NCBI GenBank assembly: GCA_963827685.1
Contig: CAWHBU010000003.1
Coordinates: 704,001-768,000, forward strand
Source of the DNA: an uncultured delta proteobacterium
GTDB lineage: Bacteria; Desulfobacterota; BSN033; UBA1163
DNA: 64,000 bases
Direction of reading: 5' to 3'
In this document: positions 25,929 to 58,269 of the stretch, piece by piece
How positions within the stretch are numbered: position 1 is the first letter of the stretch
How the letters are laid out: the number at the start of each line of letters is the position of its first letter
The notes under the pieces: model-generated
Seen by the model: only the letters and a program-made list of their open reading frames with translations
The model's database searches: none
What the model was told of the DNA's origin: nothing
Program-made: the position numbers and the translations under genes

Positions 25929-28256
25929 TTAAAGCTTCAATTGATAAACCCGGTACATTTTAATGCGTTTACCCCCCATCGTCTCAATCCTCTTGTTGAG
26001 CAGGTTGTTGTCTTCCCGTATCCATGAAAGCTCACCGCCCGTGTAACCGCGCGCTTTTGCTACCCGGAAGGATTCGAGATACAGGAGGGTCTCCAATCCC
26101 CGGCGCTGGAAAGCTCTGCGTACAGCCAATAAGGCAAACCGCAGGGTCTTGATTTGCTTGGAGTAGAAATAAAATTTCAACATGTCGGCAATACCCACGC
26201 GGCCGTCAAAGCGTTTGAGCACTTCATTATAGTCCGGCAAAATCATGGAGAAGGCCACTGGCTTCCCCTTGACCTCTACAAAATTCACCAGCTCTTTTTC
26301 AATCACAGGCCGGAGCTTAGTGATAAAATAGTGCAGGTCACCGGCGCTTAGAGGAGTAAAACCGAATTCCTGACTATTGGCATCGTTTAATATTCCCATC
26401 AGGGTATTCATTTCTTGGCGGAACCGGCTCATGTTCAGGTGCCGGATGACAATCCCTTCCTTTTTCTGGGCATGCTCGGATAGTTTCTCCAAACCCTCAG
26501 GAAAAGGTCCACGCGCATCCATCCAATAGGCATAGAAATCTTTCTCTTTCTCGAAACCATATTTCTCTAAAAATTCCGGATAATAAGCAGGATTGTACGG
26601 CATCATGATGGCCGGTGGATAATCAAACCCATCCACTAAGCAACCCATCCCGTCCAGCTGGGAAAAAGCCATCGGCCCACGCATGATTTTCATGTCTCGG
26701 TCTAACAACCATTGCTTGGCGGCATCTAAAAGCGCAACGGCGGCTCTGTAGTCCAGGCCTACCTCGAAAAAACCAAAGAAGCCCGCGCGCTCGTTATGAT
26801 ACCGGTTGGCACGATGATCAACGGCAGCCACAATCCGGCCTGCCATCTCGCTGCCTCGATAAGCCAAGAAAGCTTTCGCCTCGCCGTGGGCATAAAAAAT
26901 ATTTTCTTTACGGTCAAAAATCGTCTCCACATCCGTAATCATCGGTGGCACCCAATTGTGGTCTCGGGTGTAGATTTTCCAGGGCAGTTTCAAGAAATTC
27001 ATTTGATCGCTCTTTTCCTCACCGACTGTACGGATGTCGATCGGTGCTCCCGGAGCATTGGGTCCGATCAAACCCAATTCCGTTCCAATTTTTTTAAGCT
27101 TCTCCAAGGCATAGTCCAGTTCCTGGCGGGAATGCGTAGCCGTATAAGAAGTCCGCAGACTGGCCATCCCTGGCGGAACGGCTGGAGAAACCACCGGATT
27201 GACATAGACACCTTCTTTCTCAAGCATCTTGGCAAATTGAAAGGTTTTCAAATCATCGCCTACAAGGATGGGAATGATGGCGGATTTTGTAGCCGAGGTT
27301 CTAAATCCCATGCCCTGAATTTCTCTGAGCATGTAGCGCACATTTTCCCAAAGCTTTAGCCGGCGCTCCGGTTCTCGTTCCAGAATATTCAAGGCAGCCA
27401 AAGCGGTTGCCACGGCGGCGGGTGGAGGTGCAGCCTGGAACATAAAGGTGCGGGCATTATGCTTTAAGAACGAGATCACCTTTTCTTCGCCGGCGATAAA
27501 TCCACCCAGGCTGGCAAACGATTTTGAAAAAGTACCCATCACGAGATCAACCTTATCCAGCACACCCATTTCTTCGCAGGTACCGCGGCCGCCCTTGCCC
27601 AGAACACCCAGGCTATGTGCTTCATCCACCATGAGGCGGCATCCATATTTTTTGGCCAGAGGGACAATATGTTTCAAGTCCGCTAAATCGCCTTCCATGG
27701 AAAATACGCCATCGACCACAATGAGTCTGCCCACCTTCTTATCTTGAATATTCATCAAGATACGCTCCAGGTCTTCCATGTCGTTATGGCGAAATTTCAA
27801 AAGCTTTCCCAAAGCCATCCGGCAGCCGTCCAGGATCGAAGCATGGTTGGTGCGGTCTGAAATCACCACATCATTTTTTCCCACGATCGTCGAGATAACG
27901 CCCAGGTTGGTAGTAAATCCGGTACTGAATACTAAAGACGCTTCTTTCTTCATAAACCGACCCAGACGTTCTTCCAACTCCACATGCAAATCAATGGTCC
28001 CGTTTAGGAAACGGGAGCCCGTGCAGCCGGTCCCATACTTCTCAATGGCTTTGATGGCGGCCTCCCTCACTTCCGGATGCGAGGTAAGACCCAAATAATT
28101 GTTCGAGCCAATCATCACCGTTTTGCGGCCACTCATAATGACCGTTGTATCTACAGCTCCTTCATTGACACGAAAATAAGGATAGAGGCCGAGATTGATA
28201 ATTTTCTCAGCATCATGATAGTTATAGGCCTTGTCAAACAGATCCACCCTAATCAT
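25929..28256 (-). CDS. Fusion of serine palmitoyltransferase-like PLP enzyme and GNAT bacterial ceramide synthase-like domain
   Basis: N-half: GLYPYFR, GSNNYLGL, GTGCTGSRFLNGT, NHASI, VDEAHS, GTFSKS. C-half: LPWKIY..D.NWVPP, GFFGFFE, RGP, MPYNP.YY, ELSWI.EDN..MGG...K.YRVY. One continuous frame. Confidence 0.85.
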   Translation of the reverse strand: MIRVDLFDKAYNYHDAEKIINLGLYPYFRVNEGAVDTTVIMSGRKTVMIGSNNYLGLTSHPEVREAAIKAIEKYGTGCTGSRFLNGTIDLHVELEERLGRFMKKEASLVFSTGFTTNLGVISTIVGKNDVVISDRTNHASILDGCRMALGKLLKFRHNDMEDLERILMNIQDKKVGRLIVVDGVFSMEGDLADLKHIVPLAKKYGCRLMVDEAHSLGVLGKGGRGTCEEMGVLDKVDLVMGTFSKSFASLGGFIAGEEKVISFLKHNARTFMFQAAPPPAAVATALAALNILEREPERRLKLWENVRYMLREIQGMGFRTSATKSAIIPILVGDDLKTFQFAKMLEKEGVYVNPVVSPAVPPGMASLRTSYTATHSRQELDYALEKLKKIGTELGLIGPNAPGAPIDIRTVGEEKSDQMNFLKLPWKIYTRDHNWVPPMITDVETIFDRKENIFYAHGEAKAFLAYRGSEMAGRIVAAVDHRANRYHNERAGFFGFFEVGLDYRAAVALLDAAKQWLLDRDMKIMRGPMAFSQLDGMGCLVDGFDYPPAIMMPYNPAYYPEFLEKYGFEKEKDFYAYWMDARGPFPEGLEKLSEHAQKKEGIVIRHLNMSRFRQEMNTLMGILNDANSQEFGFTPLSAGDLHYFITKLRPVIEKELVNFVEVKGKPVAFSMILPDYNEVLKRFDGRVGIADMLKFYFYSKQIKTLRFALLAVRRAFQRRGLETLLYLESFRVAKARGYTGGELSWIREDNNLLNKRIETMGGKRIKMYRVYQLKL

Positions 28257-28810: not shown

Positions 28811-31800
28811 ATGGAACCATCTCTTATTTCCAAAAGATATTCATATCTCCTTGCAGGGATTTTGGTCTTTCTTGGACTATACCTGGCCAGTCTCTACAAT
28901 TACCTCCTTTTTCACAGCCTCGCCGAAATCTTCTCTATTGTTGTCGCTTGCGGCATCTTTATGGTCACTTGGAACTCCCGCCGTTTCCTCAACAACAATT
29001 ATCTTCTCCTCCTGGGGATCGCCTATCTATTCGTTGGCGGTCTGGATCTAATCCACACCCTGGCCTACAAAGGGATGGGGGTATTTCACGGATATGAAAC
29101 CAATTTGCCCACCCAACTTTGGATCGCTGCTCGATACATGGGGAGTCTTTCTCTCTTCCTGGCCCCCTTCTTTTTTGGACGGAAGTTGAAAGTCAATTTT
29201 GTATTTCTCGCATATGCGTTAGCTACTTTTCTCCTGCTGTTGTCCATCTTCTACTGGAGTATTTTCCCCGTTTGCTTTATCGAAGGGATTGGATTAACCC
29301 CATTTAAGAAGATCAGTGAATATATTATCTCACTCATTCTTTTGGGATCGATTGCCCTGCTTCTAAAGAATCGAAGGGAGTTTGAACTAAAGGTACTGCA
29401 GGGGTTGGTTTGGTCCATTACCGTGAGCGTTGCTTCTGAATTAGCCTTCACATTTTACATCGATGCTTACGGATTCTCCAATTTAATTGGTCACTTTTTC
29501 AAGATTCTATCATTCTATTTCATTTACAAAGCCATTATCGAGACGGGCCTAACAAAGCCTTATGACCTCCTTTTCAGAAATTTGAAGCAAAGCGAAATGA
29601 CGGTGCGGGAAGAGAAGAACAAAATACAGAACTACCTTGATATTGCAGGGGTGATCCTCGTCGTAGTCGATGCCAACCAAACGGTGAGCCTGATCAACAA
29701 AAAAGGCTGTGAAATCTTAGGATATGATGAAGAGGAGATTCTTGGCAAAAAGTGGTTTGATACATTCATCCCAGAAAAAAATAGAGATGGAGTGAGAGTG
29801 AGTTTCGAAAAGCTCATGAAAGGGGAAATTGAAACTGTTGAATGTTTCGAGAATCCGATTTTAACCAGAAACGGTGAAGAAAGAGTCATTGGATGGCATA
29901 ACGTCGTATTGAGAGATGAGAAAGGGAATATTACTTCTACCTTAAGCTCGGGAGAAGACATCACCGAGCGCAAGAAGATGGAAAAACTCCTTACCCAACT
30001 TGCATCTTTTCCAGAGCTTAACCCAAATCCCATTGTTGAAGTCGACCTGGCCGGACATATTCACTATCTCAATCCTGCTGCCGAAAACTTATTTCCCAAC
30101 CTTCACCACAAAGGGCTCACTCACCCATGGCTGATGGATTTAGAGAAAATGGACGACACGCTGAAGAGCGAACCCAAAAGAGCCCATGTTCGGGAACTAA
30201 AAGCCGGGGATAACTGGTACCAACAGGCAATTCACTCAGTCATGGAAGGTAGGCGATTACGGATCTATGGCTTTAACATCACCAAGCGCAAGAAGGCGGA
30301 GGAAGCGATCAGGGCAAGTGAAGAACGGATGCGGGAGCAAGCGGCGCGTTTGCAGACAGTGCTGGATACCGCGCCTGCGATCATCTGGGTCGCTGGCGAC
30401 AGGGAGTGCAGAGAGATTATAGGAAACCGTGCAGCATATGTTTTCTTACGGGTGCCAGAGGGGACCGATATGTCGAAGTCGGGGCGGGCGCCGGAACGCC
30501 TTGCGCACTACCGCGTCTTCAAGGATGGGGTGGAACTGACGGCACGGGAGATGCCGATCCAGAGGGTGGCGGCGTCAGGTCAAGGACTCAGCGACTATTC
30601 TATGGAGCTTGTCTTTGACGACGGGACGGTGCGCTCGGTATTGGGCAACATCAGCCCGGTGCTCGACTCCGAAGGACAACCAAACGGCGCCATCGCCGCC
30701 TTCGTGGACATCACCGAGCGCAAGCAAATGGCGGAGGAACTCCGCAAATCCCACGATGAGCTGGAATTACGGGTTCAGGAGCGGACCGCTGAGTTAACAA
30801 AAGCTAATGAAAAACTGGAAGACCAGTCACGGATCTTAGAGGGATTCTTCACTTCCATGATTACTCCGTTAGTATTTCTTGACAGAAATTTCAATTTTAT
30901 CAGAGTCAATGAGGCCTATGCCAAAGCCTGTCAGCGCGAGGTGTCAGAGTTTCCCGGCTATAACCATTTTGAATTCTATCCCTCTGATGCCAAGGCCAAA
31001 TTCGAGCAGGTTGTCCAGACAAAAGAGCCTTACGTGGCCATTGGGAAACCTTTTACCTTCCCAGATCATCCCGAGTGGGGAACCTCTTATTGGGACTGGA
31101 CACTAACGCCTCTATTAGACCAGAAAGGTGAGGTTGAATATTTAGTTCTCTCGCTTGAGGACGTGACCGAGCGCGTCCGAGCGGAGAAATCGAGGAGCCG
31201 GCTCGCCCATATCGTTGAAACAACGTCCGACCTCATAGGAATGGCAAATTTGGACGGGCAGTTGTTCTACCTAAATAAAGCCGGTCGGAAGATGCTTGGC
31301 CTCGGTGAGGAGGAGGATATATCGGGAGTGAGGATTGCTGACGCCCACCCTGACTGGGCGAGCGTCATGGTTCTTACTGAAGGTATTCCAAGCGCTTTGC
31401 AGACGGGTTTCTGGAGCGGCGAGACTGCTTTTCTGCGCCGTGATGGAGCGGAGATCCCCGCTTCTCAGGTCATCCTCGCACATAAAGGTCCGAATGGAGA
31501 GGTGGAGTTCCTTTCCACGATTGCGCGGGATATTACCGAGCGCAAGCAAGCCGAGGAGGCTGTCAAAGCCGAACGGCAGCGGTTCAATAACGTTCTGGAG
31601 ATGCTACCAGCCTATTTAGTGCTGTTGACGCCGGATTATCACGTGTCCTTCGCCAATCGCTTCTTCCGGGAGCGCTTCGGCGAGTCCCACGGCCGGCGCT
31701 GCTTTGAGTATCTCTTTGGCCTCAGCGAGCCCTGCGAGATTTGCGAAACTTATACCGTTCTGGAAACCAATACTTCCCACCATTGGGAATGGACCGGCCC

Positions 31801-33892
31801 AGACGGCCGCATTTATGATGTCTTCGACTTTCCCTTCACCGACACCGACGGCTCCACCTTCATCCTCGAGATGGGCATTGATATTACCGATCGCAAGCGT
31901 GCCGAGCATGCCTTACACGAAGCTTCCTTGTATAACCGGAGCCTCATCGAAGCAAGTCTTGATCCTCTTGTCACCATCAGCGCCGAAGGTAAGGTGACGG
32001 ATGTCAACAGGGCGACGGAGCTTGCGACCGGTGTTCCCCGTGACCAACTCATCGGAAGCGATTTTTCCGATTACTTCACCGAACCCGAGAAAGCAAGAGA
32101 GGGGTACCGGCAGGTGTTTGAGATAGGATCGGTGAAGGATTATCCTCTCTCCATCCGACATACATCAGGGAATATCATTGAGGTATTATACAATGCGGCA
32201 GTATATCGGAATGAAGCTGGAGAGGTGCAAGGTGTCTTTGCGGCTGCACGGGATATCACCGAGCGAAAAAGAGCCGAAGAGGCTGCTCAGGCCCAATACG
32301 CTCTCCGTGAGGCTATAGAAAACTCGCTTGTCGCCGGTATCATGGTTGTGGAAAAAGATGGAAAGCTCGCTCATGCAAATCCTGCCTTCTACAGGATGAC
32401 GGGGTGGAAGGAAGAAGAATTGATAGGATCAATGCCGCCCTTTGCCTTTTGGCCACCCGAAACCTTGGGAATTCGCACCGAGTCTCTTCGCGCATTGCTA
32501 AGCGGGAAGATACCGCTGAAAAGCTTTGAAGCCCGTCTCCGCCGAAAAAATGGAGAGAGTTTCGATGCCCTTGTAGTGGTCTCGTCTTTAAAAAACGCTC
32601 AAGGAAAGGCGCTGGGATGGGTTGCTTCGATCGGAGATATTACCCAACGAAAGGAAACGGAAAGGCAAATCAACGCAACCAATGCCTTGCTCAGTCTATT
32701 TTCGAAAAAATCTTTACGAAAGGAATACCTGAATTCAGTGGTCGATCTCATTCAAAGTTGGAGCGGATGCCGATGTGTAGGCATCCGAGTGTTGAATAAG
32801 CAGGGGGGCATCCCTTATGAGTCCTATGTGGGGTTCAGCCGGGAATTCTGGGAATCGGAGAATTGGCTTTCGGTTCAAAGGGATCAGTGCGTTTGCATCC
32901 GCATTGTCACTGGAAAATCGGATCCCCAGGATATCTCCGTCATAACGCCAGGGGGGTCATTTCGTTGTGGCAACACAATAGAATTTGTAAACCATCTTTC
33001 AGAGGAGGAAAAATCGAGATATCGAGGCGTCTGTATACAAAATGGATTCCTTTCTGTGACGATCATCCCGATTCGCTACCTTGACAAAATAGTGGGGGCA
33101 ATTCATCTGGCCGATGAAAGAGAGGCATTCATGCCGTTAAGTATCGTGGAATTCCTTGAGTCCATGGCACCTCTCATCGGAGAAGCGGTCAACAGGCTTA
33201 ATTTGGAAGAGGAATTACGGGAATCGGAGAATCGGCTCCGCTCCCTCTCTTCACACCTTTTAACCGTTCAGGAAAATGAGAGGAAAAGGATTGCTATGGA
33301 ACTCCATGATAGCATTGGACAAATGTTGACTGCTATCAAATTCAAAGTAGAGAATACCCTCCAAGAAAAGGGTAAGGGCAAGGCGAGAGCAAGAGAAAAA
33401 TCATTAGAGGCTATCGTTCCAATGGTTAGAGAAAGCGTTCAAGAAGTCAGAAGAATTCAGATGGATTTGCGCCCTTCCACTCTGGATGACCTGGGGATCT
33501 TAGCCACCCTGGGGTGGTTCTGCCGGGAATATCAAAGAATCTATTCTCGCATTCGCATCGAAAAAGAGATTGGCCTCCAGGAAAACGAAGTCTCTCCCAT
33601 TCTTAAGACCGTGATCTACCGATTGACGCAGGAGGCCCTGAACAATATCGCCAAGCACAGCAAGGCAGAGCTCGTTCATCTCTCACTGAGAAAAAAAGGC
33701 GACAGGATAGAATTGGTCATTAAAGATAACGGGACGGGATTCGACTTAGCAGAAACCCTTTCCTCGGAAAGATCTAAGAGAGGATTGGGGCTTAATAGCA
33801 TGAGAGAACGGGCCGAACTCTCGGGAGGGACTTTTGAGATCGAAACGACCATGGGAAAAGGAACGGTGATCAAAGCCAGTTGGCCAATTTGA
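28811..33892 (+). CDS. Membrane sensor histidine kinase: MASE3, multiple PAS/PAC, GAF, HisKA_3, HATPase
   Basis: NYLLFHSLAEIFSI (MASE3), repeated DITERK, ERKRIAMELHDSIGQ, QEALNNIAKHS, DNGTGF, GLGL. Confidence 0.93.
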   Translation: MEPSLISKRYSYLLAGILVFLGLYLASLYNYLLFHSLAEIFSIVVACGIFMVTWNSRRFLNNNYLLLLGIAYLFVGGLDLIHTLAYKGMGVFHGYETNLPTQLWIAARYMGSLSLFLAPFFFGRKLKVNFVFLAYALATFLLLLSIFYWSIFPVCFIEGIGLTPFKKISEYIISLILLGSIALLLKNRREFELKVLQGLVWSITVSVASELAFTFYIDAYGFSNLIGHFFKILSFYFIYKAIIETGLTKPYDLLFRNLKQSEMTVREEKNKIQNYLDIAGVILVVVDANQTVSLINKKGCEILGYDEEEILGKKWFDTFIPEKNRDGVRVSFEKLMKGEIETVECFENPILTRNGEERVIGWHNVVLRDEKGNITSTLSSGEDITERKKMEKLLTQLASFPELNPNPIVEVDLAGHIHYLNPAAENLFPNLHHKGLTHPWLMDLEKMDDTLKSEPKRAHVRELKAGDNWYQQAIHSVMEGRRLRIYGFNITKRKKAEEAIRASEERMREQAARLQTVLDTAPAIIWVAGDRECREIIGNRAAYVFLRVPEGTDMSKSGRAPERLAHYRVFKDGVELTAREMPIQRVAASGQGLSDYSMELVFDDGTVRSVLGNISPVLDSEGQPNGAIAAFVDITERKQMAEELRKSHDELELRVQERTAELTKANEKLEDQSRILEGFFTSMITPLVFLDRNFNFIRVNEAYAKACQREVSEFPGYNHFEFYPSDAKAKFEQVVQTKEPYVAIGKPFTFPDHPEWGTSYWDWTLTPLLDQKGEVEYLVLSLEDVTERVRAEKSRSRLAHIVETTSDLIGMANLDGQLFYLNKAGRKMLGLGEEEDISGVRIADAHPDWASVMVLTEGIPSALQTGFWSGETAFLRRDGAEIPASQVILAHKGPNGEVEFLSTIARDITERKQAEEAVKAERQRFNNVLEMLPAYLVLLTPDYHVSFANRFFRERFGESHGRRCFEYLFGLSEPCEICETYTVLETNTSHHWEWTGPDGRIYDVFDFPFTDTDGSTFILEMGIDITDRKRAEHALHEASLYNRSLIEASLDPLVTISAEGKVTDVNRATELATGVPRDQLIGSDFSDYFTEPEKAREGYRQVFEIGSVKDYPLSIRHTSGNIIEVLYNAAVYRNEAGEVQGVFAAARDITERKRAEEAAQAQYALREAIENSLVAGIMVVEKDGKLAHANPAFYRMTGWKEEELIGSMPPFAFWPPETLGIRTESLRALLSGKIPLKSFEARLRRKNGESFDALVVVSSLKNAQGKALGWVASIGDITQRKETERQINATNALLSLFSKKSLRKEYLNSVVDLIQSWSGCRCVGIRVLNKQGGIPYESYVGFSREFWESENWLSVQRDQCVCIRIVTGKSDPQDISVITPGGSFRCGNTIEFVNHLSEEEKSRYRGVCIQNGFLSVTIIPIRYLDKIVGAIHLADEREAFMPLSIVEFLESMAPLIGEAVNRLNLEEELRESENRLRSLSSHLLTVQENERKRIAMELHDSIGQMLTAIKFKVENTLQEKGKGKARAREKSLEAIVPMVRESVQEVRRIQMDLRPSTLDDLGILATLGWFCREYQRIYSRIRIEKEIGLQENEVSPILKTVIYRLTQEALNNIAKHSKAELVHLSLRKKGDRIELVIKDNGTGFDLAETLSSERSKRGLGLNSMRERAELSGGTFEIETTMGKGTVIKASWPI

Positions 33893-33924
33893 TTGCGGAA
33901 TGCGGAGTGCGGATTGCTGAGTAA

Positions 33925-34344
33925 ATGAACTACTCCCTTGATATAGAACACGGAATGAAAATGAATGAATACAAGAACATGACAGGTGAAAAACAGAATT
34001 ATCTTAAAGAACGGACAAAGATGTTTGCTTTGCAGATAATTAAATTGGTTGAACAATTGCCAAAAGGGCGAACGGCAGATGTCATTGGAAGGCAGTTATT
34101 AGAGTCGGGTACCTCTGTCGGAGCCAATTACCGTGCTGCAAGCAGGGCAAGATCGCCTGCTGACTTCATCTCGAAGATGGGAATTGTTGAGGAAGAGGCC
34201 GACGAAACAATATATTGGATGGAGCTTCTTGTTCTTTCAGGATTAATTCATAAATCCGATATAACAAACCTACTAGATGAAGCAAACCAAATTTTAGCCA
34301 TGACCGTTTCTTCAATCAAGACGGCAAAAACAAGAAAAAAATGA
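33925..34344 (+). CDS. Four-helix-bundle protein (TIGR02436 / 23S rRNA IVP-like); true start may be 33961 or 33979
   Basis: RTKMFALQII, GRQLL.SGTSVGANYRAA.RARS..DFISK..IV.EEADET.YW. Confidence 0.9.
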   Translation: MNYSLDIEHGMKMNEYKNMTGEKQNYLKERTKMFALQIIKLVEQLPKGRTADVIGRQLLESGTSVGANYRAASRARSPADFISKMGIVEEEADETIYWMELLVLSGLIHKSDITNLLDEANQILAMTVSSIKTAKTRKK

Positions 34345-34388
34345 CTCCATGTTCCGCGATCCGCACTCCGCATTCTGCATTGCGGTTA

Positions 34389-35048
34389 TCATTCACGCGA
34401 GACCAATCCCCTCTCAATGGCGAAGGTGGTCAGGGCCTGGATGTTGTGAAGATCCAATTTTTCCATGAGATTGGCCCGGTGTTTCTCAACCGTCTTGACG
34501 CTGATACAGAGATCATCTGCAATCTCTTTATTCTTGTATCCTTCGGCAATCAGCTTCAGGATCTCTCTCTCTCGCTGGGTCAGGGTTTCCCAGGATGTGC
34601 GGGATTTTAGACTCTTTTTCCCCTCTAAGTACCCTACGATCACCTTTTCTGAGATTTCAGGACTGATATAATGTTTACCGTTTAAGACTTTTTTAACTGC
34701 CATCACTAACTCGGAATGGGTAGAATCCTTTAAGATATACCCATCGGCTCCGGCCCGGAAGGTGGCCAGGATGTATTCCTCCGCCTTGTGAACGGTTAAG
34801 ACCAGGACCTTGGTCGCCGGTGATTCCCTCTTGATCTCCTTAATGGCCTCCATACCGTTCATCCTTGGCATGGAGAGGTCCGTCAGGATGAGGTCGGGTT
34901 TGAATTTCTCAGCACAGCGGATGGCCTCCCGGCCGTCTTCTGCCTCCCCCACGATCTCGAAGTTTGGATTTGAGGAAAGGAGTGACCGCAATCCCTCCCT
35001 GAGGATGGTATGATCTTCAGCGATGACAATTCGAACTTTTTGGCTCAT
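34389..35048 (-). CDS. NarL/LuxR family response regulator
   Basis: REC domain (AEDH, DLSMP) plus LTQREREIL...SVKTVEKHRANLM. Confidence 0.95.
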   Translation of the reverse strand: MSQKVRIVIAEDHTILREGLRSLLSSNPNFEIVGEAEDGREAIRCAEKFKPDLILTDLSMPRMNGMEAIKEIKRESPATKVLVLTVHKAEEYILATFRAGADGYILKDSTHSELVMAVKKVLNGKHYISPEISEKVIVGYLEGKKSLKSRTSWETLTQREREILKLIAEGYKNKEIADDLCISVKTVEKHRANLMEKLDLHNIQALTTFAIERGLVSRE

Positions 35049-35219
35049 GAGTTAGATTCCTCCTCTCCCGATCTACCCACCTTATGGTAGATATCCTTCT
35101 TACTTAGTTTTACCCCCAAAAATACTGTATAACCCTCGTCCAATTACAGTGTATACCCTATTTACCATTTTTGTAACTATTAGTAAAGTAGATGCATGAT
35201 GGGTAGAGAAGGAAAGTCG

Positions 35220-35627
35220 ATGAGAGTAGATATGGAACGCGTATTAATTGTTGAGGATAACCCTTTCTTCCTGCAATTTCTCAAGGAGACCCTCCATTCC
35301 CGATTCCCTTCAATAGATATTCTTGAAGCAGCCAACGGAGAGGAGGCGATGCAGAAGATAAAGACGCTCAAGCCCGAAGCCATCTTTATGGACCTCAGAT
35401 TGCCCGGGGAAAACGGCCTCGAATTAACAAAAAAGATAAAGGCCGAACATCCGGACATCATCGTCGTCATTATTACAAATTATGATTTACCGGAATATCG
35501 AGAGGCTGCATACCAGTGTAAGGCAGATCATTTCCTTTCAAAGGATTCCTTTCTGAATATGATAAATTCTATTTTACCAAATCGAAATACTGGTCAGGAT
35601 GATTCACATCGCAAGCAACCATCTTAA
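35220..35627 (+). CDS. Stand-alone receiver protein
   Basis: IVEDN, FMDLRLPGENG, FLSK. Confidence 0.88.
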   Translation: MRVDMERVLIVEDNPFFLQFLKETLHSRFPSIDILEAANGEEAMQKIKTLKPEAIFMDLRLPGENGLELTKKIKAEHPDIIVVIITNYDLPEYREAAYQCKADHFLSKDSFLNMINSILPNRNTGQDDSHRKQPS

Positions 35628-35643
35628 AGGGGGTCAATTTACC

Positions 35644-36045
35644 GTGCCCAAAGCATTGCTCGTTGAGGATAGCACCATTTTCCGAAAATTACTTAAAGAG
35701 ACCCTGCATTCTGGATTTCCGTCCCTGGAGATTTCTGAGGCGACAGATGGGGAGGAAGCGATGCAAGAAATTGACGCCCGACCACCTGACCTCATCTTCA
35801 TGGACATCAAATTACGCGGAGAAAACGGCCTTGAGCTAACTGCAAAGATAAAAGACAAATATCCTGACGTAATCGTCATCATTCTGACGAGTTACGATAC
35901 CCCGGAATATCGAGAGGCAGCGGTTCGAGCCAAAGCTGACCATTTTCTTTCAAAAGGTTCATCAAGCAAAGAGGGTATTTTGGCATTAGTTGAGTCTATT
36001 TGGGCTGGCCGGTGGAGGCCTACGGGCAAAGCCCGTGGTTCCTAA
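35644..36045 (+). CDS. Stand-alone receiver protein, paralog of the upstream gene
   Basis: LVEDS, FMDIKLRGENG, PEYREAA, FLSK; GTG start after AGGGGG. Confidence 0.88.
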   Translation: MPKALLVEDSTIFRKLLKETLHSGFPSLEISEATDGEEAMQEIDARPPDLIFMDIKLRGENGLELTAKIKDKYPDVIVIILTSYDTPEYREAAVRAKADHFLSKGSSSKEGILALVESIWAGRWRPTGKARGS

Positions 36046-43570: not shown

Positions 43571-43969
43571 CTAATCTTTTCCTTTTTTCTTCAGAAAACC
43601 GAGGAGGTCGGATTCCTTGGAAGATTTTGTATTAGGCTTCTCCTTTTCAATGCCGGGCTTCAATTCTTCTCTTTTCAACTCCTTCTCCCGGATCATATGT
43701 CTCTCAATCCAGTGGTCGAGAGCTTTCACATCGAAAAGAACCCGGTCCCCAATTTTGAGGTAAGGAAGTTTTTTCAGGGAGGCCATCCGGTAGACGGTGT
43801 CTGTCGAAAGGCTTAAGTACTGGCTCGCTTCTTTGGCAGTAATCAATCTTCGGAGTTCGGGAATCTTTTTCATCCGGTCATCGATCCGTTCAAAATACTT
43901 CTCGAGCAGCAGCTCTGCCAGCATGTCTAAGAATTCTTTGACCGGAGGCCGGTATTCTTCTTGTGCCAT
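43571..43969 (-). CDS. Excisionase-like (HTH_17) DNA-binding protein
   Basis: LITAKEASQYLSLSTDTVYRMA...LPYLKIG..VLF; GGAGG RBS 28 bp after the REC-LpxC stop. Confidence 0.85.
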   Translation of the reverse strand: MAQEEYRPPVKEFLDMLAELLLEKYFERIDDRMKKIPELRRLITAKEASQYLSLSTDTVYRMASLKKLPYLKIGDRVLFDVKALDHWIERHMIREKELKREELKPGIEKEKPNTKSSKESDLLGFLKKKGKD

Positions 43970-43997
43970 TTGTCCCTCCAGAGAACAGGGTGATTTC

Positions 43998-45365
43998 TCA
44001 CCGTTCTTTTTCTCTTGCCACTTTCTGAATCTTCTTGAGGAGAGCGATGTTTTCTGTATGACCGGTCAGATGGGCAGTCACTTTTCCTCGAATCGGACGG
44101 TTGAGAAGATAGAAATCGCCAATCAAGTCAAGAATCTTATGCCGGACAAATTCGTCAGGAAATCGAAGTTCGGTGTTGACGACCTTCTCGTCATCAACCA
44201 GGATGACGTTGCTGAGTCGCCCACCCCCTCCCATCCCCATCCGTTCGAGCATCTTATAATCCTTGACAAAGCTAAAGGTTCTCGCTGGAGCGATCTCATC
44301 CTTGAAGGCCTCCTCGCTCCCTAAGATAAAGGCCAGGGTCTGCTGCCCGATGGGAGGGGGATAATCCAAAAAATAGTGAACAGAAAAGGTTTCAGCAGGT
44401 TCAATGACCAGAGACTTATCCCGATGGACGACCTGCAGTCGACGATCGATGATCAATTCGTCCACCCTCTCCTCTTGTTCCTCCACACCCGCCTCTTCGA
44501 CAATCTTACAAAACTCCAAAGCCGAGCCGTCCATCACCGGAATCTCTTCAATCATCTTCACCATCAAGTTGGTGATACGATAGGCGTGCAGCACTGCCAT
44601 GAGGTGCTCGACCGTCCTCGCAACGGCTCTCCCCTTTTTCAGAGAAGTGGCAGACTCTGTCGTTTCGACATAGTCGACATGGGCAGGAACCACTTCGTCC
44701 GCCGAGATGTTTCCGAACAGGATCCCGCTATGAGGGGGCAGGGGTTGAAGAAGGAGTCCTGTTTTTTTCCCAGAAAAAAGTCCTGTTCCGTAAAGCACCA
44801 TGCTCTGCTTCAGAGTACGCTGAGGCAATAAGGAGGTCCCTTTCTTGTTCGCAACCTCCTTGGCTAAGGGAATCGCTTCCCGGACGGAGGAAACGGGAGG
44901 TCCGGTGACTTCTCCGGCAATCTCTTTTGGAAAGATCTTCGTGGCCTGGAAGGGTTCTTCGGTGACAATTTCCCCCGATCGCTGGACGGTCAGCAACTCC
45001 TTCTGATGATTAAGGGCTCGATGGATGGTCATAAGAAGAACATCAAGAGAAAGAGGTTTTTCAATGAAGTCAAAAGCCCCTAATTTCACAGCGGTCATGG
45101 CAGTCGAGATCGTTGCATGACCGGAGATCATAATCACTTGACACTCTGGGGCAATCCATTTGAGCCGTTTCAATACCTCGATGCCATCCATCCCCGGCAT
45201 CCAGATATCGAGAAGCGTAACATCCGGCCCTTCTTCCTGAAAAACTTTTATTGCCTCTTCTCCACTCTTCGCCTGGGCGACTCGGAAACCTTCATCCTCC
45301 AGAACCCCCGCGATCGATTGGATCACTCTTTCCTCATCATCCACGATGAGGACTTTTCTCTCCAT
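43998..45365 (-). CDS. lpxC: Receiver domain-LpxC fusion (UDP-3-O-acyl-GlcNAc deacetylase)
   Basis: REC: VDDE, LLDIWMP (D53), ISGH, FIEKP. LpxC: QRTLK..GTGL.SG, TVEHLMA, PVMDGSA, IAPARTF, RHKILDLIGD, GH. Confidence 0.9.
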   Translation of the reverse strand: MERKVLIVDDEERVIQSIAGVLEDEGFRVAQAKSGEEAIKVFQEEGPDVTLLDIWMPGMDGIEVLKRLKWIAPECQVIMISGHATISTAMTAVKLGAFDFIEKPLSLDVLLMTIHRALNHQKELLTVQRSGEIVTEEPFQATKIFPKEIAGEVTGPPVSSVREAIPLAKEVANKKGTSLLPQRTLKQSMVLYGTGLFSGKKTGLLLQPLPPHSGILFGNISADEVVPAHVDYVETTESATSLKKGRAVARTVEHLMAVLHAYRITNLMVKMIEEIPVMDGSALEFCKIVEEAGVEEQEERVDELIIDRRLQVVHRDKSLVIEPAETFSVHYFLDYPPPIGQQTLAFILGSEEAFKDEIAPARTFSFVKDYKMLERMGMGGGGRLSNVILVDDEKVVNTELRFPDEFVRHKILDLIGDFYLLNRPIRGKVTAHLTGHTENIALLKKIQKVAREKER

Positions 45366-45431
45366 AACGTCTCCCGCAAAGAGGATTTTGACTTTCCAAT
45401 ATCACAACCTCGTCAAAGAATCAACATCTTA

Positions 45432-45551
45432 TTGGAATACTGGAATAGTGGAATACTGGAACATTAGAAAAAGATCTTAAATTTAGGTATTTAGGAATTT
45501 AGGGATTCGCAATTCCTCAATTCCTTAATTCCTCAATTCACATTATTCCAT
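45432..45551. repeat. Compound inverted 8-mer repeats
   Basis: TGGAATAC units ... CATTATTCCA enclose ATTTAGGA/AATTCCTC arms; the outer family recurs at 58291-58394. Confidence 0.75.
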
Positions 45552-47039
45552 TTATTTATCGATCTGGGCCTTCTGAAGCCGACCACTGAAATCCCGATAG
45601 ATTACCTTCCATCGACTGTAGGTATCCAGAGCGCCCCCTCGACCTCCTGCCTCCTTCCTTCCATAACCCGAACTTTTGATCCCGCCAAAAGGCAGTTGTA
45701 TCTCCGCACCAATTGTGGACGCATTGATATACACAATTCCGGTCTCAAGATCCCTCTCTGCGACAGCCGATGCATTGACATCCTGGGTGTAAATGGCGGA
45801 GGAAAGTCCATACGGGGTGCGATTGACAATCTGAATGGCGACCTGAAGGTCTTCTGCCTTGATCACGGAAACCACGGGCCCAAAAATTTCCTCTTGGGCG
45901 ATCCGCATCTCAGGAGTTACCTCAATAAAGATGGTCGGTTCGATGAAATACCCTTTCGAACAGTCCCCTTTTTGATAGGCCTTCCCTCCCAAAATGAGTT
46001 TTGCCCCCTCTTTCTTTCCGATCTCGATATATTTGAGAATTTTGTTGAACTGGGATTCATTGATCACCGGCCCCACGTCTGTCTCTTTTTGAAGGCCATC
46101 TCCCAGTTTAAGACGGGAGGCGGCAGTCTTGAACTTTTCGATGAATTTCTGGTAGACTTTTTTGTGCACGACGATTCGACTGGCGGCAGTGCATCGTTGG
46201 CCGGTCGTTCCAAAACCGCCCCAGATGGCCCCTTCAACAGCCAAATCGAGGTTCGCATCATCCATGACAATGATCGCATTCTTCCCGCCCATCTCAGTCA
46301 CAATGATCCGATGAATGGCTCCACAAATTCCTTCGAGACGTTTCCCAGTATCAAAGGAACCCGTAAAGGAGATGGCATCCACCTCTGGATGGTTCACCAA
46401 ATATTCCCCCACCTCCCCTCCTGGCCCATGGATTAGATTCAGAACCCCTTTAGGCAAACCCGCCTCCGCCAGAGCCCCTACAAATTTTGCGGCACAGACG
46501 GTGGTATCGCTGGAGGGCTTCAAGACAACCGTATTGCCACAGATGAGGGCTGGAAAGACCTTCCATCCGGGAATAGCGATAGGAAAATTCCAGGGAGTGA
46601 TCAAGCCGAAAACACCAATGGGAACACGAATCGATTTCATATCCTTATTGCAAAGTTCGGAGGGAACGGTTTCTCCAGAAAGTCTTCTGCCCTCGCCGGC
46701 CATGTAATAACCCATGTCAACGGCCTCCTGGACATCGCCTAAACCTTCAGAAAGGATTTTACCCATTTCCCTGGTTTCGAGCTTTCCCAAAGATTCTTTA
46801 TTTCTCAAAAGAATTTCTGCAGCTCTGAACAGAATTTCACCCCGACGTGGGGCCGGGGTGAGTCGCCACTCTTCATAGGCTCCTCGGGCTGCCTTGACGG
46901 CCTGATCCACATCTTCCCGGCCTGACTTCGAGACAATTCCAATCACTTCATCTTTGTTGGCGGGATTGATCGACCGAAAAGTCTCTCCGGATTTGGAATC
47001 AACCCATTTCCCATCAATATAATTCTTAATACGTTCCAT
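45552..47039 (-). CDS. Aldehyde dehydrogenase family protein
   Basis: ITPWNFP, FTGS, EMGGKN, GQRCTA, EEIFGPV, PFGG. Confidence 0.95.
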
Positions 47040-47086
47040 CTTCGCCCCTCACTCACTCCGCAATCCGTATTCTACAATCTGCAATT

Positions 47087-48115
47087 TTAATAGTTCCCTA
47101 CCCCAACCTTCTTTTTCAGGAGATCATAATCCTGCTCCGACGAAGCAAAAACTCCGGTGTTTCCCAACCTCACATTCCTCAGCCCGACGGCCTTGGCTTC
47201 CAGGTAGGCTTCAATCATCTCAGAAACCTTTGGATGTTTATACCGTTTCATTTGGTACTCTGGGAAAAAAGCCAAAATGGTAAAAGGGATTTCTGGATCG
47301 ACATCAAAAATCAATTGAGCGATCTTCTTCAACTGGGGCGTCTCCACGAGGTTTGGAATATAGAGAGAAAGGATTTCCAGAACAAAACCCCTTGTAACAA
47401 TCTCTTCGGGAAGTTTGAGGATGTTCCGGTTGAAACAGCCGGTCAACCACTTATGGTCGGTCCCGTCATAGGCCTTGATATCGAGCCAGAAAGAGTCAAC
47501 CCCTGCCTTCTTTAACGCATCGAGGTTCTGAGGGGTAAGGCCATAACCATTGGTTTCGATCAGCACCCATAACTCGGTCTCTGCCTTAATGAGGCGAGTA
47601 CAGTCGACATAGTACTCCGGACAACAGGTCAGATCTCCCCCTGTGAAGGCAACGATATTGCGGGCAGGCCCCCATCCCTGGGGACTTAAAACGATCTCTT
47701 TTTTCTGGATCACCTTGGGACAGAGAGAAGACCGTTTTCCATACATGACACAAGCCCCGCAACCACGACAGGAATCATGGGCATGAAAGGCAGTAGCTCT
47801 GTTTCGAGGCTCCCGGACGGTCACTTCTTTTTCATATTCTTTGCATGCCTTTAACACATCGGCAGGAGACCACCAATCGCCCTTGGCAATTCTTGTGAAA
47901 TTCCAGGAATGACATTTTCGGCAGGAGAAGTTACAACCTGATTGGTAGATGGAGAGGTAATTCTCTGGGCGCGAGAGATGGACAGCGGAGATGAGTCTGA
48001 GGAGACCATTGTCCGTCCTTTTGAGGGTGGCTTCACAGGCAGGAGACTTCCCCCGCTCGATCTCAATCAGACAGCTTCCCTGAGGATATCCTTGCTTAAT
48101 TAAATTACATTTCAT
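47087..48115 (-). CDS. Radical SAM protein (PFL-activase-like) with an extra Cys cluster
   Basis: GCNFSCRKCHSW, FTGGD, ETNG, DIKA; additional CRGCGAC...CP. Confidence 0.85.
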   Translation of the reverse strand: MKCNLIKQGYPQGSCLIEIERGKSPACEATLKRTDNGLLRLISAVHLSRPENYLSIYQSGCNFSCRKCHSWNFTRIAKGDWWSPADVLKACKEYEKEVTVREPRNRATAFHAHDSCRGCGACVMYGKRSSLCPKVIQKKEIVLSPQGWGPARNIVAFTGGDLTCCPEYYVDCTRLIKAETELWVLIETNGYGLTPQNLDALKKAGVDSFWLDIKAYDGTDHKWLTGCFNRNILKLPEEIVTRGFVLEILSLYIPNLVETPQLKKIAQLIFDVDPEIPFTILAFFPEYQMKRYKHPKVSEMIEAYLEAKAVGLRNVRLGNTGVFASSEQDYDLLKKKVGVGNY

Positions 48116-52086: not shown

Positions 52087-53707
52087 TGGGCTGTTGCTCA
52101 AAAGCCCAATTCAAAAATATCTGACAGTTTGAGTTTCCATGAATGATAGCCGAGGGTAAGTAAAACCAAATAGCACCATTCGGCCAATTTTTGAGTTCAT
52201 TAGCTCCTTAAAATCTGAAAAGGACCTTATCTCCCTTGTCACAGCCCCTTTGATCTGCTCCATCATCACCGATGGACTTCTCTTTAGGTAAGATCCGTAC
52301 CTAAGCAAAACCTCAATGTTCTGGACAGCAGAGATCAGGTATTCCTGTATCTGCACCCGCCAAAGCCCTCTCCATCGTGCCCGGTCATATCCATACCGCG
52401 TCCCTCTGGCATAGGAACGCTCCATCAAATGCTGCCTCACTTTGATATCCCGCTTCGCTTTGGCCGATCGACTCGCTTCTCGCATCCTGTCTAGATCTTC
52501 CTGCCTCAGATGTCGCTTAATTGTCCGACCTGATCTGTTTCTAGTACACTGCTCTCTTAAGTCACATGCTGCACAAATCTTCTTGGGTGCAGCGTAATCT
52601 CTACTTTGCCGACTCATATGTAATGATCTAGGCTTCAACCGATGCCCAGCTGGACAACGATAGGTGTCACTCTCCCGATCATACTCAAACCGCTCTTCCC
52701 CAAAGATATTCTGCTTTTCTGTACGCTTCAATGAAATTTCCCTCAAGTCCGGCATGTGGGCCTCTACTCCTCTATCATGACAGGCCAAAAAGTTCTCGAT
52801 CGTCCCGTATTTGCTGTCGGCCACCACCGTATCCGCATTGATCCCTGTATTTAAACGGTGGCTCTCTATCAGAGGAATCATCTCATGCGCTTCATTGACA
52901 TCTCCTGTTGTCGTCTCGATCGCCGTGATCACTTCACTCCGCTCATCCACGGCCCGATGTACCTGATAGGAGAGTTTGGGCTTGCCACGATTCACAATCG
53001 ATGCATCCGGATCGGTCGTTGAAATGTATCGGCTGTTCTCTTTAACGTATCTCCTGGAGGAATCCGTGCTCTCGCTCTTTTCCTCTAATCGTGCTTCCAG
53101 CTTCTTGTAGCCCTCCTGGAGTTGAACCTTCAACGATCGCGTGTCGATCACGGAGTTGTTCGATGCATCCGCATCCACCAGGCTCGAATCCACAAAGATC
53201 TTTCTGCCGTCCACTAACCCCGCCTCCACACATTGCCACACCATTCGCTCAAAGAACCCCCTAAACGCTTCCACTCCCCACCGCGCCCTGGCTTTACTCA
53301 AAACACTGTGATCCGGCACCTCACTGTCTATGTCGTACCCTAAAAACCATAGCCAGTCTAAACGCATGGGGATCGTTTCCATTAACTCTCGTTCCGATCG
53401 AACATTGTAAAGAACTAACAGCAACATCATCTTCAGGATTACAGGAGGGGGAATGGACACATTCCCGTTGCCCCCATAGGTGTCTCTGACCTCTGCATAG
53501 ATGAAGTTAAAGTCAATCTGCTCTTGAATCCTTCTCAGAAGGTGTGTCCGGGGAATCCTTTATTCCAGGTTCATATGATGATAGAAGATCTTCGGCTGAA
53601 TTCCTGTCTGTTGTCCCATCATGGCAATATCTCCATTCCAGATTTGTGCTGCCATGCTTATAGCTCGAATGTATAATCGTTGCAAGTATCATTTGGGCAA
53701 CAGCCCG
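52087..53707 (-). mobile_element. IS1182 family insertion sequence
   Basis: TIRs GGGCTGTTGCTCAAA (52088) and TTTGGGCAACAGCCC (53692-53706); flanking TCAA duplication. Confidence 0.9.
52111..53622 (-). pseudogene. IS1182 transposase with a nonsense codon at position 21
   Basis: MMGQQ...MNLE*RIPRTHLLRRI...SIPP; VPDHS.LS, VDSS, TDPDA, VADSKYG, CPAG. Confidence 0.88.
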
Positions 53708-57063: not shown

Positions 57064-58269
57064 TCAGTCGGCCTGTTTTCTTAAAAAAGTTGGGATATCA
57101 AAACGATCCTCATCCTCAACAGAGAAATCCGACGGTGGATCCAATTTTAGTTCATCGAACCGCTCGCTCGTCTTCCCCCTTCTCATAAAAGCAGGGATGT
57201 CCCTGTTATTCTCTTTGTTGCCAAAAGAGAAGTGTGGAAAATCTTTATTCTGCTCTCGGAGGCCAAATGAGATAGGAGCCATTTTCTTAAACTGAGATGT
57301 TCTCTTATCCTCTTTCTTTCCGAAACCGGTAGCAATCACGGTTACCCGAATCTCTTCCTTCATGGTTTTGTCGACCACCATCCCCCAGATCACATTGGCA
57401 TCTTCATGGGCTTCCTTCTGAATCAGAGTGGTTGCCTCATTGATTTCGCTGAGGGTCATATTCTCGCCCCCGGTGATGTTGATGAGAAGCCCCCGGGCTC
57501 CTTCAATCGTAATATCTTCCAAGAGAGGGCTGGAAATCGCTCTTTGGGCAGCTTCCACGGATCGATTCTCACCCATAGCAATTCCTGTTCCCATCAATGC
57601 CATTCCCGTCTCAGACATGACGGTGCGGACATCGGCAAAGTCCAGATTGATGATTCCATGGCCAACGATGATATCTGAGATCCCTTTGGCAGCATGATAG
57701 AGAACTTCGTCTGCTTTCTTGAAGGCCTCCAGCAGAGTCATGCTCTTCCCGCTGACACTAAGGAGACGCTGGTTCGGGATCGTGATGAGGGCATCCGCTG
57801 TCATCTTGAGATTGGCCAACCCTTCCTCTGCCTGTTTCATCCTCTTCTTTCCTTCGAAGTAGAAGGGTTTGGTCACAATCGCTACGGTCAGGGCACCTAT
57901 TTCACGGGCCACTTCTGCAATCACCGGCGCCCCGCCCGTACCCGTCCCGCCGCCTAACCCGGCTGTGATGAAGACCATGTCTGACCCTTTTAGAGCTTCG
58001 CGAATCTTCTCGATATCCTCGAGGGCAGCCTTCCTCCCTATCTCTGGATTGGCTCCGGCTCCCAAGCCCTTGGTCAAATTTTCGCCCAATTGCAATTTGA
58101 TGGGAGCCATATTTGCCGCCATCGCCTGGGCATCGGTATTGGCGGCGATGAACTCGACCCCGGAGAGTTGATAAGAAATCATGGTATTCAGGGCATTATT
58201 TCCTCCTCCTCCAATTCCGATGATCTTGACCTTGGCAGCCAAATTCTTATTTTCGTCGAATTCGATCAT
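57064..58269 (-). CDS. ftsZ: Cell division protein FtsZ
   Basis: GGGGNNA, GLGAG, GGGTGTG, NLDFADV, C-terminal DIPTFLRKQAD. Confidence 0.99.
   Translation of the reverse strand: MIEFDENKNLAAKVKIIGIGGGGNNALNTMISYQLSGVEFIAANTDAQAMAANMAPIKLQLGENLTKGLGAGANPEIGRKAALEDIEKIREALKGSDMVFITAGLGGGTGTGGAPVIAEVAREIGALTVAIVTKPFYFEGKKRMKQAEEGLANLKMTADALITIPNQRLLSVSGKSMTLLEAFKKADEVLYHAAKGISDIIVGHGIINLDFADVRTVMSETGMALMGTGIAMGENRSVEAAQRAISSPLLEDITIEGARGLLINITGGENMTLSEINEATTLIQKEAHEDANVIWGMVVDKTMKEEIRVTVIATGFGKKEDKRTSQFKKMAPISFGLREQNKDFPHFSFGNKENNRDIPAFMRRGKTSERFDELKLDPPSDFSVEDEDRFDIPTFLRKQAD

Follow-up and report, generated by a model that had tools for sequence, protein, structure and literature searches.

LpxC is the enzyme that commits a cell to lipid A synthesis. 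In a 64,000-nucleotide stretch of DNA from an uncultured delta proteobacterium of the phylum Desulfobacterota (assembly GCA_963827685.1, contig CAWHBU010000003.1, positions 704,001 to 768,000; hereafter the window, with coordinates counted from its first letter), the lpxC gene encodes a phosphoreceiver domain, a linker, and a complete LpxC in one reading frame. What does a receiver do on a biosynthetic enzyme, and which kinase might act on it? A note made earlier from the letters of this DNA alone had suggested that lipopolysaccharide (LPS) flux may be set here directly by two-component phosphorylation. As far as sequence analysis reaches, our results support this inferred mode of control: receiver-LpxC is a widespread variant both of the enzyme-output response regulators and of LpxC control, and the enzyme is probably under the direct control of a membrane sensor kinase.

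A receiver domain fused to the sole LpxC

The fusion gene and the parts of its product are as follows.

43998..45365, minus strand: receiver-LpxC fusion gene, one open reading frame (ORF) of 455 residues with an ATG start and a TGA stop; the only lpxC of the genome
45024..45353, minus strand: NtrX-type receiver domain, residues 5 to 114 (Pfam Response_reg; D9, D10, D53, S81, and K103)
44976..45023, minus strand: extension of receiver helix alpha5, residues 115 to 130 (AlphaFold2 helix 107 to 130)
44832..44975, minus strand: flexible linker, residues 131 to 178 (low model confidence; the site of the NtrX AAA+ and HTH_8 modules in longer relatives)
44025..44822, minus strand: LpxC catalytic domain, residues 182 to 447 (E253/H254, T363/F364, H409/K410/D413, D417, and H436)

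Both halves of the protein scored well above the curated cut-offs. Pfam assigned residues 5 to 114 to Response_reg (PF00072) with 110 bits (cut-off, 30.2), and the C-terminal half matched positions 1 to 267 of the 268 in the LpxC profile (PF03331) with 274.8 bits (cut-off, 27) and the NCBIfam lpxC model TIGR00325 with 231.5 bits (cut-off, 187.25). The top NCBIfam model for the receiver was NtrX (122 bits). The phospho-site motifs are in place, namely, VDDE at residues 8 to 11 (D9 and D10), LLDIW (D53), MISGH (S81), and FIEKP (K103), as are those of the enzyme, TVEH at 251 to 254, HKILD at 409 to 413, and TGH at 434 to 436. When the LpxC half was aligned to Pseudomonas aeruginosa LpxC (E = 7.8e-50; 36 to 38% identity to the P. 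aeruginosa chains), E253/H254, H409, D413, and H436 fell on its TVEH, HKILD, and GH motifs; this alignment places the residues that we take to be the zinc ligands (His, His, and Asp) and the catalytic Glu and His.

The predicted structure agrees with this division. An AlphaFold2 model built on 30 fusions gave confident folds for residues 1 to 130 and 179 to 455 (predicted TM-score [pTM], 0.65); the predicted local distance difference test score (pLDDT) was mostly above 90 over residues 179 to 455 and below 50 over residues 130 to 176, a disordered linker of about 48 residues. For the model of the LpxC half, the top Foldseek matches among solved structures were all LpxC (TM 0.83 to 0.95 on target length), with 1p42_A at TM 0.95 on target length and a root mean square deviation of 1.5 Å. 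No solved chain spanned both the receiver and the LpxC half in the sequence and Foldseek comparisons. Curated scores, motif residues, and fold identify the C-terminal half as LpxC, and score and phospho-site residues identify the N-terminal half as a PF00072 receiver. What had been read from the letters, an NtrX-like receiver with intact D9/D10, D53, Ser, and Lys joined to a full LpxC with its zinc and catalytic motifs, was thus confirmed residue by residue, and the linker length given there, about 60 residues, was a fair estimate.

The same residues are retained across the fusions. In an alignment of 30 of them with 30 to 87% identity, D10, S81, K103, E253, H254, H409, K410, D413, D417, and H436 are invariant, and D9, D53, and T363 are at least 90% conserved; the integrity of the LpxC domain and the retention of the phospho-acceptor, both implied by the earlier suggestion, therefore hold, fully or nearly so, across the alignment. 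Mean identity among 119 close homologs was 92% for the receiver, 85% for LpxC, and 65% for the linker. Judged from sequence, the fused receiver is under strong purifying selection, and both halves are under selection.

The fusion gene is also the only candidate for the housekeeping enzyme. Only the fusion gene matches PF03331 in the genome (14 contigs, 94.5% complete), and an hmmsearch of all six frames, run with a profile built from the LpxC half, gave the same answer, which settles a point that the earlier note had raised for checking. LpxB and LpxD are present as well, so the lipid A pathway is in use. That the fusion protein is the sole LpxC of a genome that also holds LpxB and LpxD argues, indirectly, that it would act as a deacetylase on UDP-3-O-acyl-GlcNAc.

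We then asked how widespread the architecture is. Both domains occur in all 120 of the best database matches (81 to 100% identity, the top match being the window's own protein). In a comparison of 40 related genomes, which represent the window's own family (f1), three further families (f2 to f4), and two others, the fusion was found in 24/24 other f1 genomes, in 7 of the 8 f2 genomes at about 57% identity (none was seen in G034, which is 75% complete), and in the single f4 genome, where it lies in a 424-residue frame and Pfam confirmed both domains in a 414-residue ORF; in the five f3 genomes and the two others, lpxC stands alone. Of 401 genomes sampled evenly across the phylum, 377 had an LpxC match, and 103 had one of the fusion type, defined as a match to the window protein at E <= 1e-62. 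Of these fusion-type matches, 102 fall within open frames of 399 residues or longer, and 36 of the 103 rows span the query from residue 5 or earlier to residue 442 or later. Twenty loci from 19 families were cut out from rows that matched the LpxC half alone: in 19 of them a single frame encodes receiver and LpxC, and the remaining one carries a frameshift; the short form accounts for 12 and the long form (described below) for eight. Fusions also occur beyond the phylum, in metagenome-assembled genomes (MAGs) of Nitrospinota. Because the same architecture recurs in dozens of independent genomes, it reflects neither chance nor an assembly chimera, and the concern that the fusion might be unique to this assembly no longer applies. 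Among the 103 genomes, the fusion is the sole PF03331 match except in G075, G238, and G349, where a stand-alone lpxC accompanies it; G115 likewise shows two PF03331 matches, one of them at a contig edge.

Some loci showed other arrangements. At G008:C50:81088-82451 and at L222 (G306), the fusion is split over two overlapping frames, which may reflect an assembly frameshift or a broken gene. The f2 genome G033 carries two receiver-LpxC paralogs about 130 kb apart (L018:3754-5184 and L019:3072-4490), each preceded by a protein of 229 to 232 residues with a hydrophobic N terminus; the one that was scanned (L018:5227-5916) had no Pfam match. Three Nitrospirota loci (L161, L167, and L198) were considered as fusions and rejected, as they contain separate, unrelated receiver genes followed by lpxC.

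Descent of the receiver from NtrX and a candidate kinase

To trace where the receiver came from, we searched 1.84 billion cluster representatives and found, besides the short form, long relatives of 650 to 736 residues in which Pfam recognized a receiver, Sigma54_activat, AAA_lid, and LpxC. One of them, P0121, matches positions 3 to 451 of the 452 in the NtrX model before its LpxC begins, so that a whole NtrX stands in front of the enzyme. Traces of this arrangement persist in shorter proteins: a 491-residue form has an HTH_8 remnant between receiver and LpxC (Pfam), and the relatives P0129 and P0131 retain such a remnant at the position of the linker. The window protein itself has no Sigma54_activat domain, no GAFTGA-bearing AAA+ module, and no HTH_8 domain by Pfam. 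Lacking both an AAA+ module and HTH_8, it cannot act as a transcription factor; by its sequence features it is a derivative of NtrX and the NtrC-family sigma54 activators and not a member of that group.

Gene order points the same way. Unfused relatives in the window's class have the order lpxC-DUF4390-ntrY-ntrX-smpB, and in four Nitrospinota MAGs and one unclassified MAG the long fusion directly follows DUF4390-ntrY, in the place of ntrX; it was the sole LpxC match in 5/5 long-fusion genomes. In unfused relatives NtrX is a complete sigma54 activator, and 4/4 of these proteins carry Walker A, the Walker-B DE, and either GAFTGA or GSFTGA. In the long fusions, GAFTGA and the Walker-B Glu are missing in 15/15, and Walker A is kept in 13. 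The receiver of the window protein is 56% identical to the NtrX receiver of an unfused relative, and at 56 kinase-facing and phospho-site positions it shares 36 to 38 residues with NtrX of unfused relatives and at most 26 with any of 30 receiver paralogs of its own genome.

We built a tree of 90 LpxC domains by the "quick" method from the best matches to the window protein, which do not represent LpxC diversity at large. One branch, with a Shimodaira-Hasegawa-like approximate likelihood ratio (SH-aLRT) support of 97, has all 44 fusions (29 short and 15 long) on one side, together with five proteins of 283 to 347 residues whose gene context was not visible, and 37 stand-alone representatives and four unfused relatives on the other. 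At three places, two of them with a support of 100, short forms are nested among the long forms. Uniting the fused and unfused LpxC of the window's class, a group that was named after the tree had been seen, costs 81 log-likelihood units (approximately unbiased test, p-AU 0.028). We read these patterns as one origin of an NtrX-LpxC fusion, decay of its ATPase module, and repeated deletion of that module, including in the window's lineage. The short receiver-linker-LpxC protein would then be what remained after several sublineages deleted the AAA+ module.

The genome encodes one clear NtrY ortholog (G000:C6:206840-209047) that is 55% identical to the kinase of an unfused relative (834 bits, versus 146 for the next match) and comprises NtrY_N, HAMP, PAS, HisKA, and HATPase domains, with a DUF4390 gene in front. 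Its locus reads DUF4390-ntrY-smpB, and a gap of 274 bp lies where unfused relatives have ntrX. An NtrX-like gene beside ntrY was found in 0/28 NtrY loci of two fused families; ntrY is directly followed by smpB in 24 of these loci, and in the remaining four the contig ends or smpB was not seen. The two unfused NtrY loci keep lpxC and ntrX. No clear NtrX ortholog was found in the genome, where the best full-length matches are some 15 paralogs with 37 to 47% identity and similar scores. In other families the two genes are neighbors: ntrY is immediately followed by the fusion gene at 12 of the 20 sampled loci and, judged by coordinates, in 20 genomes, from 10 families, among the first 80 of the 103 with a fusion. 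Among the lpxC rows listed for 80 unfused genomes, at least 14 have lpxC 320 to 1,228 bp upstream of ntrY on the same strand. The ntrX slot left empty in the family and the position of the fusion gene directly after ntrY in other genomes make NtrY the likely kinase of the fused receiver, in agreement with the earlier guess of an NtrY-like kinase. The absence of an adjacent cognate kinase was also noted correctly, since neither neighbor of the fusion gene encodes a kinase, of NtrY type or otherwise; the histidine kinase gene closest to it in the window, at 28811 to 33892, is of the unrelated HisKA_3 type.

Open frames of 1,007 to 1,423 residues that suggested a triple fusion of NtrY, receiver, and LpxC were rejected: Pfam found only receiver and LpxC in them, and ntrY lies in another frame just upstream. 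In G238 and G075, a stand-alone lpxC is located just upstream of ntrY and the fusion-type copy on another contig; these genomes are possible intermediates, or possible recipients of a transferred fusion gene.

A connection between NtrYX-type systems and lpxC is already on record. The Desulfovibrio vulgaris regulator DVU2934, encoded in an operon with the kinase DVU2931, is described as having lpxC as its single target, and the orthologous operon of Syntrophobacter fumaroxidans is said to be immediately preceded by lpxC (Rajeev et al. 2011, PMC3333781). For Rhodobacter sphaeroides, an ntrYX mutant is reported to have an 8.8-fold-higher lpxC transcript level and more LPS, with no NtrX site at lpxC (Lemmer et al. 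2020, PMC7240162). A 2025 review of lipid A regulation states that NtrYX affects lpxC transcript and LPS levels in Caulobacter, lists NtrYX and ChvGI as transcriptional inputs, and names proteolysis and transcription as the known controls of LpxC; the words "receiver," "response regulator," and "fused" are absent from it (PMC12444477). DUF4390 is presented as PlrP, a proposed periplasmic third component of a subset of NtrYX systems, in another study (PMC13001219). No paper on a receiver-LpxC fusion was found in the full-text literature, a search whose scope did not extend to most subscription journals; within that scope, the earlier statement that this control mode was not known to have been characterized stands.

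Proposed control of LpxC by phosphorylation and competing explanations

The account that we favor, and regard as rather likely, is that a housekeeping LpxC has become tied to an NtrX-type receiver and that NtrY phosphorylates D53, which changes LpxC output at the protein level. The membrane kinase, together with its periplasmic, PlrP-like DUF4390 partner, would phosphorylate D53 of the fusion, and the phosphorylation state of this residue would alter LpxC output, likely through altered packing of the receiver against the catalytic domain or through dimerization of that domain, as in other response regulators whose output is an enzyme. In this way, transcriptional control of lpxC would have given way to direct phospho-control of its product. 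Whether phosphorylation raises or lowers activity is a matter of guesswork; because the ancestor was an activator of lpxC transcription, our guess is that it raises it. A broader proposal is also conceivable, and we hold it with some doubt: about a quarter of the phylum, together with Nitrospinota and other uncultured lineages, may run lipid A homeostasis via a dedicated phosphorelay, in which a periplasm-facing NtrY/DUF4390 pair reads the state of the envelope and switches catalysis by the sole LpxC within seconds through the fused receiver. If so, this phosphorelay would take the role that FtsH/LapB/YejM proteolysis has in enterobacteria, and control of LpxC would be the ancestral core function of NtrYX-type systems, which in turn would explain the envelope phenotypes of NtrYX in alphaproteobacteria.

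The fusion is best understood beside the systems that it resembles. With stand-alone LpxC (P. aeruginosa, Aquifex aeolicus, and Escherichia coli) it shares the catalytic domain, the TVEH, HKxxD, and GH motifs, and the fold, but it adds an N-terminal receiver and linker of about 180 residues and belongs to a separate LpxC clade made up of fusions. Common to it and the NtrY/NtrX family (including Bordetella PlrS/PlrR/PlrP and D. vulgaris DVU2931/DVU2934) are the NtrX-type receiver, NtrY with DUF4390, and the link to lpxC; here, however, the output is the enzyme itself, and the kinase and receiver genes are unlinked in this genome. CheB likewise consists of a receiver, a flexible linker, and a catalytic domain, in its case a methylesterase unrelated to LpxC; the unphosphorylated CheB receiver masks the active site. 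Another natural LpxC fusion, the bifunctional LpxC/FabZ (NF009667), matches the LpxC half with 202.9 bits, far below its cut-off of 465, and its partner is a C-terminal metabolic enzyme, whereas the partner in the present fusion is an N-terminal signaling domain. A receiver fused to LpxC would constitute a third mode of control, post-translational and signal driven, beside proteolysis and transcription. Together with the lpxC-ntrY linkage in unfused genomes and the single target of DVU2934, the fusion serves as a "Rosetta stone" that indicates a tie between NtrYX-type systems and LPS synthesis well beyond the alphaproteobacteria. It would also exemplify a rare evolutionary path, in which a transcription factor was fused to the product of its own target and then lost its DNA-binding and ATPase parts stepwise. 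The hypothesis of phospho-control is directly testable, as it involves a single protein, a single aspartate, and a single candidate kinase.

Several observations weigh against the account that we favor. The fusion gene and the NtrY ortholog are on different contigs (C3 and C6, respectively), so their pairing rests on other genomes. Retention of NtrY, which we had considered as an argument for this pairing, was dropped because NtrY is common throughout the phylum, with an ortholog in 72 of 80 unfused genomes as well as in 80 of 80 fusion genomes, and thus does not discriminate between them. A receiver-domain tree was poorly resolved and by itself does not group the fused receivers with NtrX. 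For DVU2934, orthology to the NtrX of unfused relatives is taken from a remark on synteny in the D. vulgaris study (PMC3333781). D53 is replaced by Asn in one of the 30 aligned fusions (P0139). Finally, no defined contact between receiver and enzyme was predicted for the window protein, given its pTM of 0.65 and disordered linker. Linker length varies from about 20 to about 100 residues in the 30-fusion alignment, and a long, variable, and apparently disordered linker argues for a tether over a rigid joint. The 414-residue homolog, with a linker of about 20 residues, was modeled with a pTM of 0.85, above expectation for two independent domains; this hints, weakly and indirectly, at a defined receiver-LpxC contact.

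Three other explanations have to be weighed against phospho-control of catalysis. The receiver could control the amount or location of LpxC rather than its catalysis, with phosphorylation exposing or hiding a degradation signal, as in protease adaptors and substrates of the receiver type, or retaining the enzyme at the membrane near the kinase; we consider this unlikely. The degron of enterobacterial LpxC is C-terminal, and 10 residues follow the last position of the fusion protein that aligns to P. aeruginosa LpxC, so there is little room here for a C-terminal degron; this point, the absence of a confident domain contact across the long disordered linker, and the proteolytic control of LpxC described for the best-studied bacteria in the review cited above (PMC12444477) are what this explanation has on its side. 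Its difficulty is that no protease, adaptor, or degron was identified and that the linker, the least conserved part of the protein and one so variable in length, is a poor fit to a conserved degron; the compact prediction for the short-linker homolog is a better fit to direct domain contact.

That the receiver is a relic, a folding or dimerization appendage independent of phosphorylation on an enzyme regulated otherwise or not at all, strikes us as improbable. Decay of the receiver is conceivable, as the AAA+ module that came from the same ancestral regulator decayed and disappeared, P0139 has lost the aspartate, and in 60 of 80 fusion genomes the fusion gene is not beside the kinase gene. A relic would hardly be expected to keep a phospho-acceptor set that is invariant or at least 90% conserved in 30 fusions down to 30% identity, to be more conserved than the enzyme half, or to retain NtrX-type kinase-facing segments found in none of the 30 same-genome paralogs compared, and the kinase holds its place beside an empty regulator slot. 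Least probable of all, and in our estimate very much so, is that signaling is the chief task of the fusion and LpxC chemistry a secondary one, the protein acting either as a sink for phosphate or as a sensor of substrate with feedback to NtrY. Receivers that stand alone or are linked to enzymes can serve as phosphate sinks, and the 97 receiver-domain matches in the genome indicate elaborate signaling; on the other side, the fusion is the sole LpxC in this and nearly all fusion genomes and keeps every catalytic residue, and no other NtrX-type regulator is present to take the main signal.

The downstream helix-turn-helix gene and other neighbors

Three further features flank or follow the fusion gene.

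43970..43997, minus strand: 28-bp spacer between the fusion gene and the helix-turn-helix (HTH) gene, with a GGAGGG ribosome-binding motif ahead of the ATG of the HTH gene
43571..43969, minus strand: HTH_17 (excisionase-family fold) DNA-binding protein of 132 residues, identified by Pfam and NCBIfam; a family-specific neighbor of the fusion gene
45366..45551, minus strand: presumed promoter region, an intergenic stretch of 186 bp that separates the fusion gene from the aldehyde dehydrogenase gene

The 132-residue protein matched HTH_17 with 48.1 bits (cut-off, 27; Pfam) and TIGR01764 with 45.8 bits (cut-off, 28.8). Of the 24 other f1 genomes, 23 have one copy of its gene, immediately 3' to the fusion gene, at 66 to 93% identity, and its database homologs all belong to the same lineage (85 to 93% identity for the top 120). 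No match to it was found in the f1 genome G022, in the f2 (0/8) or f3 (0/5) genomes, or in the f4 genome, and no HTH_17 domain was found among 20 same-strand ORFs of at least 108 residues in the stretch that follows the fusion gene at 25 loci from other families; the genes in that position encode a mutase, NUDIX, CobO, SDR, glyoxalase, and integrase-family proteins, among others. The neighbors of the HTH gene are the fusion gene and a 5'-nucleotidase gene, with no mobile-element or integrase gene beside it. The protein has the fold of an excisionase and, by its sequence and setting, no sign of an excisionase role. We considered the HTH gene as part of the receiver-LpxC system and rejected this outside f1, as the gene is missing beside the fusion in other families; on sequence grounds it is a feature of the family and not part of the wider system. 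For the earlier idea that it may add transcriptional control, the support is the adjacency conserved within f1; beside the fusion in other families the gene is absent. The gap of 28 bp was measured as reported; it contains the GGAGGG, and only a weak five-pair hairpin without a T run overlaps the stop codon. The fusion and HTH genes would, on this layout, be cotranscribed, as we infer. In the presumed promoter region of 186 bp, a consensus scan found no sigma70-type site at its threshold.

The fusion gene lies 11.7 kb downstream of ftsZ (57064 to 58269, minus strand), on the same strand, close to the 12 kb noted earlier; ftsZ ends a murC-murB-ddl-ftsQ-ftsA-ftsZ row. A DDE transposase gene (52111 to 53460, minus strand) and unrelated genes lie between the two. 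The fusion gene may occupy the old "envA after ftsZ" position, displaced over 11.7 kb by inserted genes. Directly upstream of it, on the same strand, are aldehyde dehydrogenase and radical-SAM genes (45552 to 48115, minus strand); an aldehyde dehydrogenase gene is upstream of the fusion in 10 of 11 related loci with 88 to 94% identity, and in L006 the identity is 50% over 58 residues.

The genome was also searched for LapB with the Zn_ribbon_LapB family. No LapB turned up in this search, which is no proof of absence. The family's match, G000:C4:381562-381645 (54.9 bits), was rejected as LapB, being the N-terminal zinc ribbon of RadA (NCBIfam), and in a control search the family also matched Gram-positive genomes and is thus not a specific LapB marker.

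Elsewhere in the window, an ORF of 775 residues (25929 to 28256, minus strand) encodes a class I/II aminotransferase at residues 47 to 387, followed by some 390 C-terminal residues without a Pfam match at E 1e-6. The gene of a 1,693-residue sensor kinase (MASE3, at least five PAS domains, HisKA_3, and HATPase) begins a gene group at 28811 to 36045; after it come a gene for a 23S-rRNA-intervening-sequence protein, an opposite-strand gene for a LuxR-type response regulator, and two overlapping genes for single-domain receivers.

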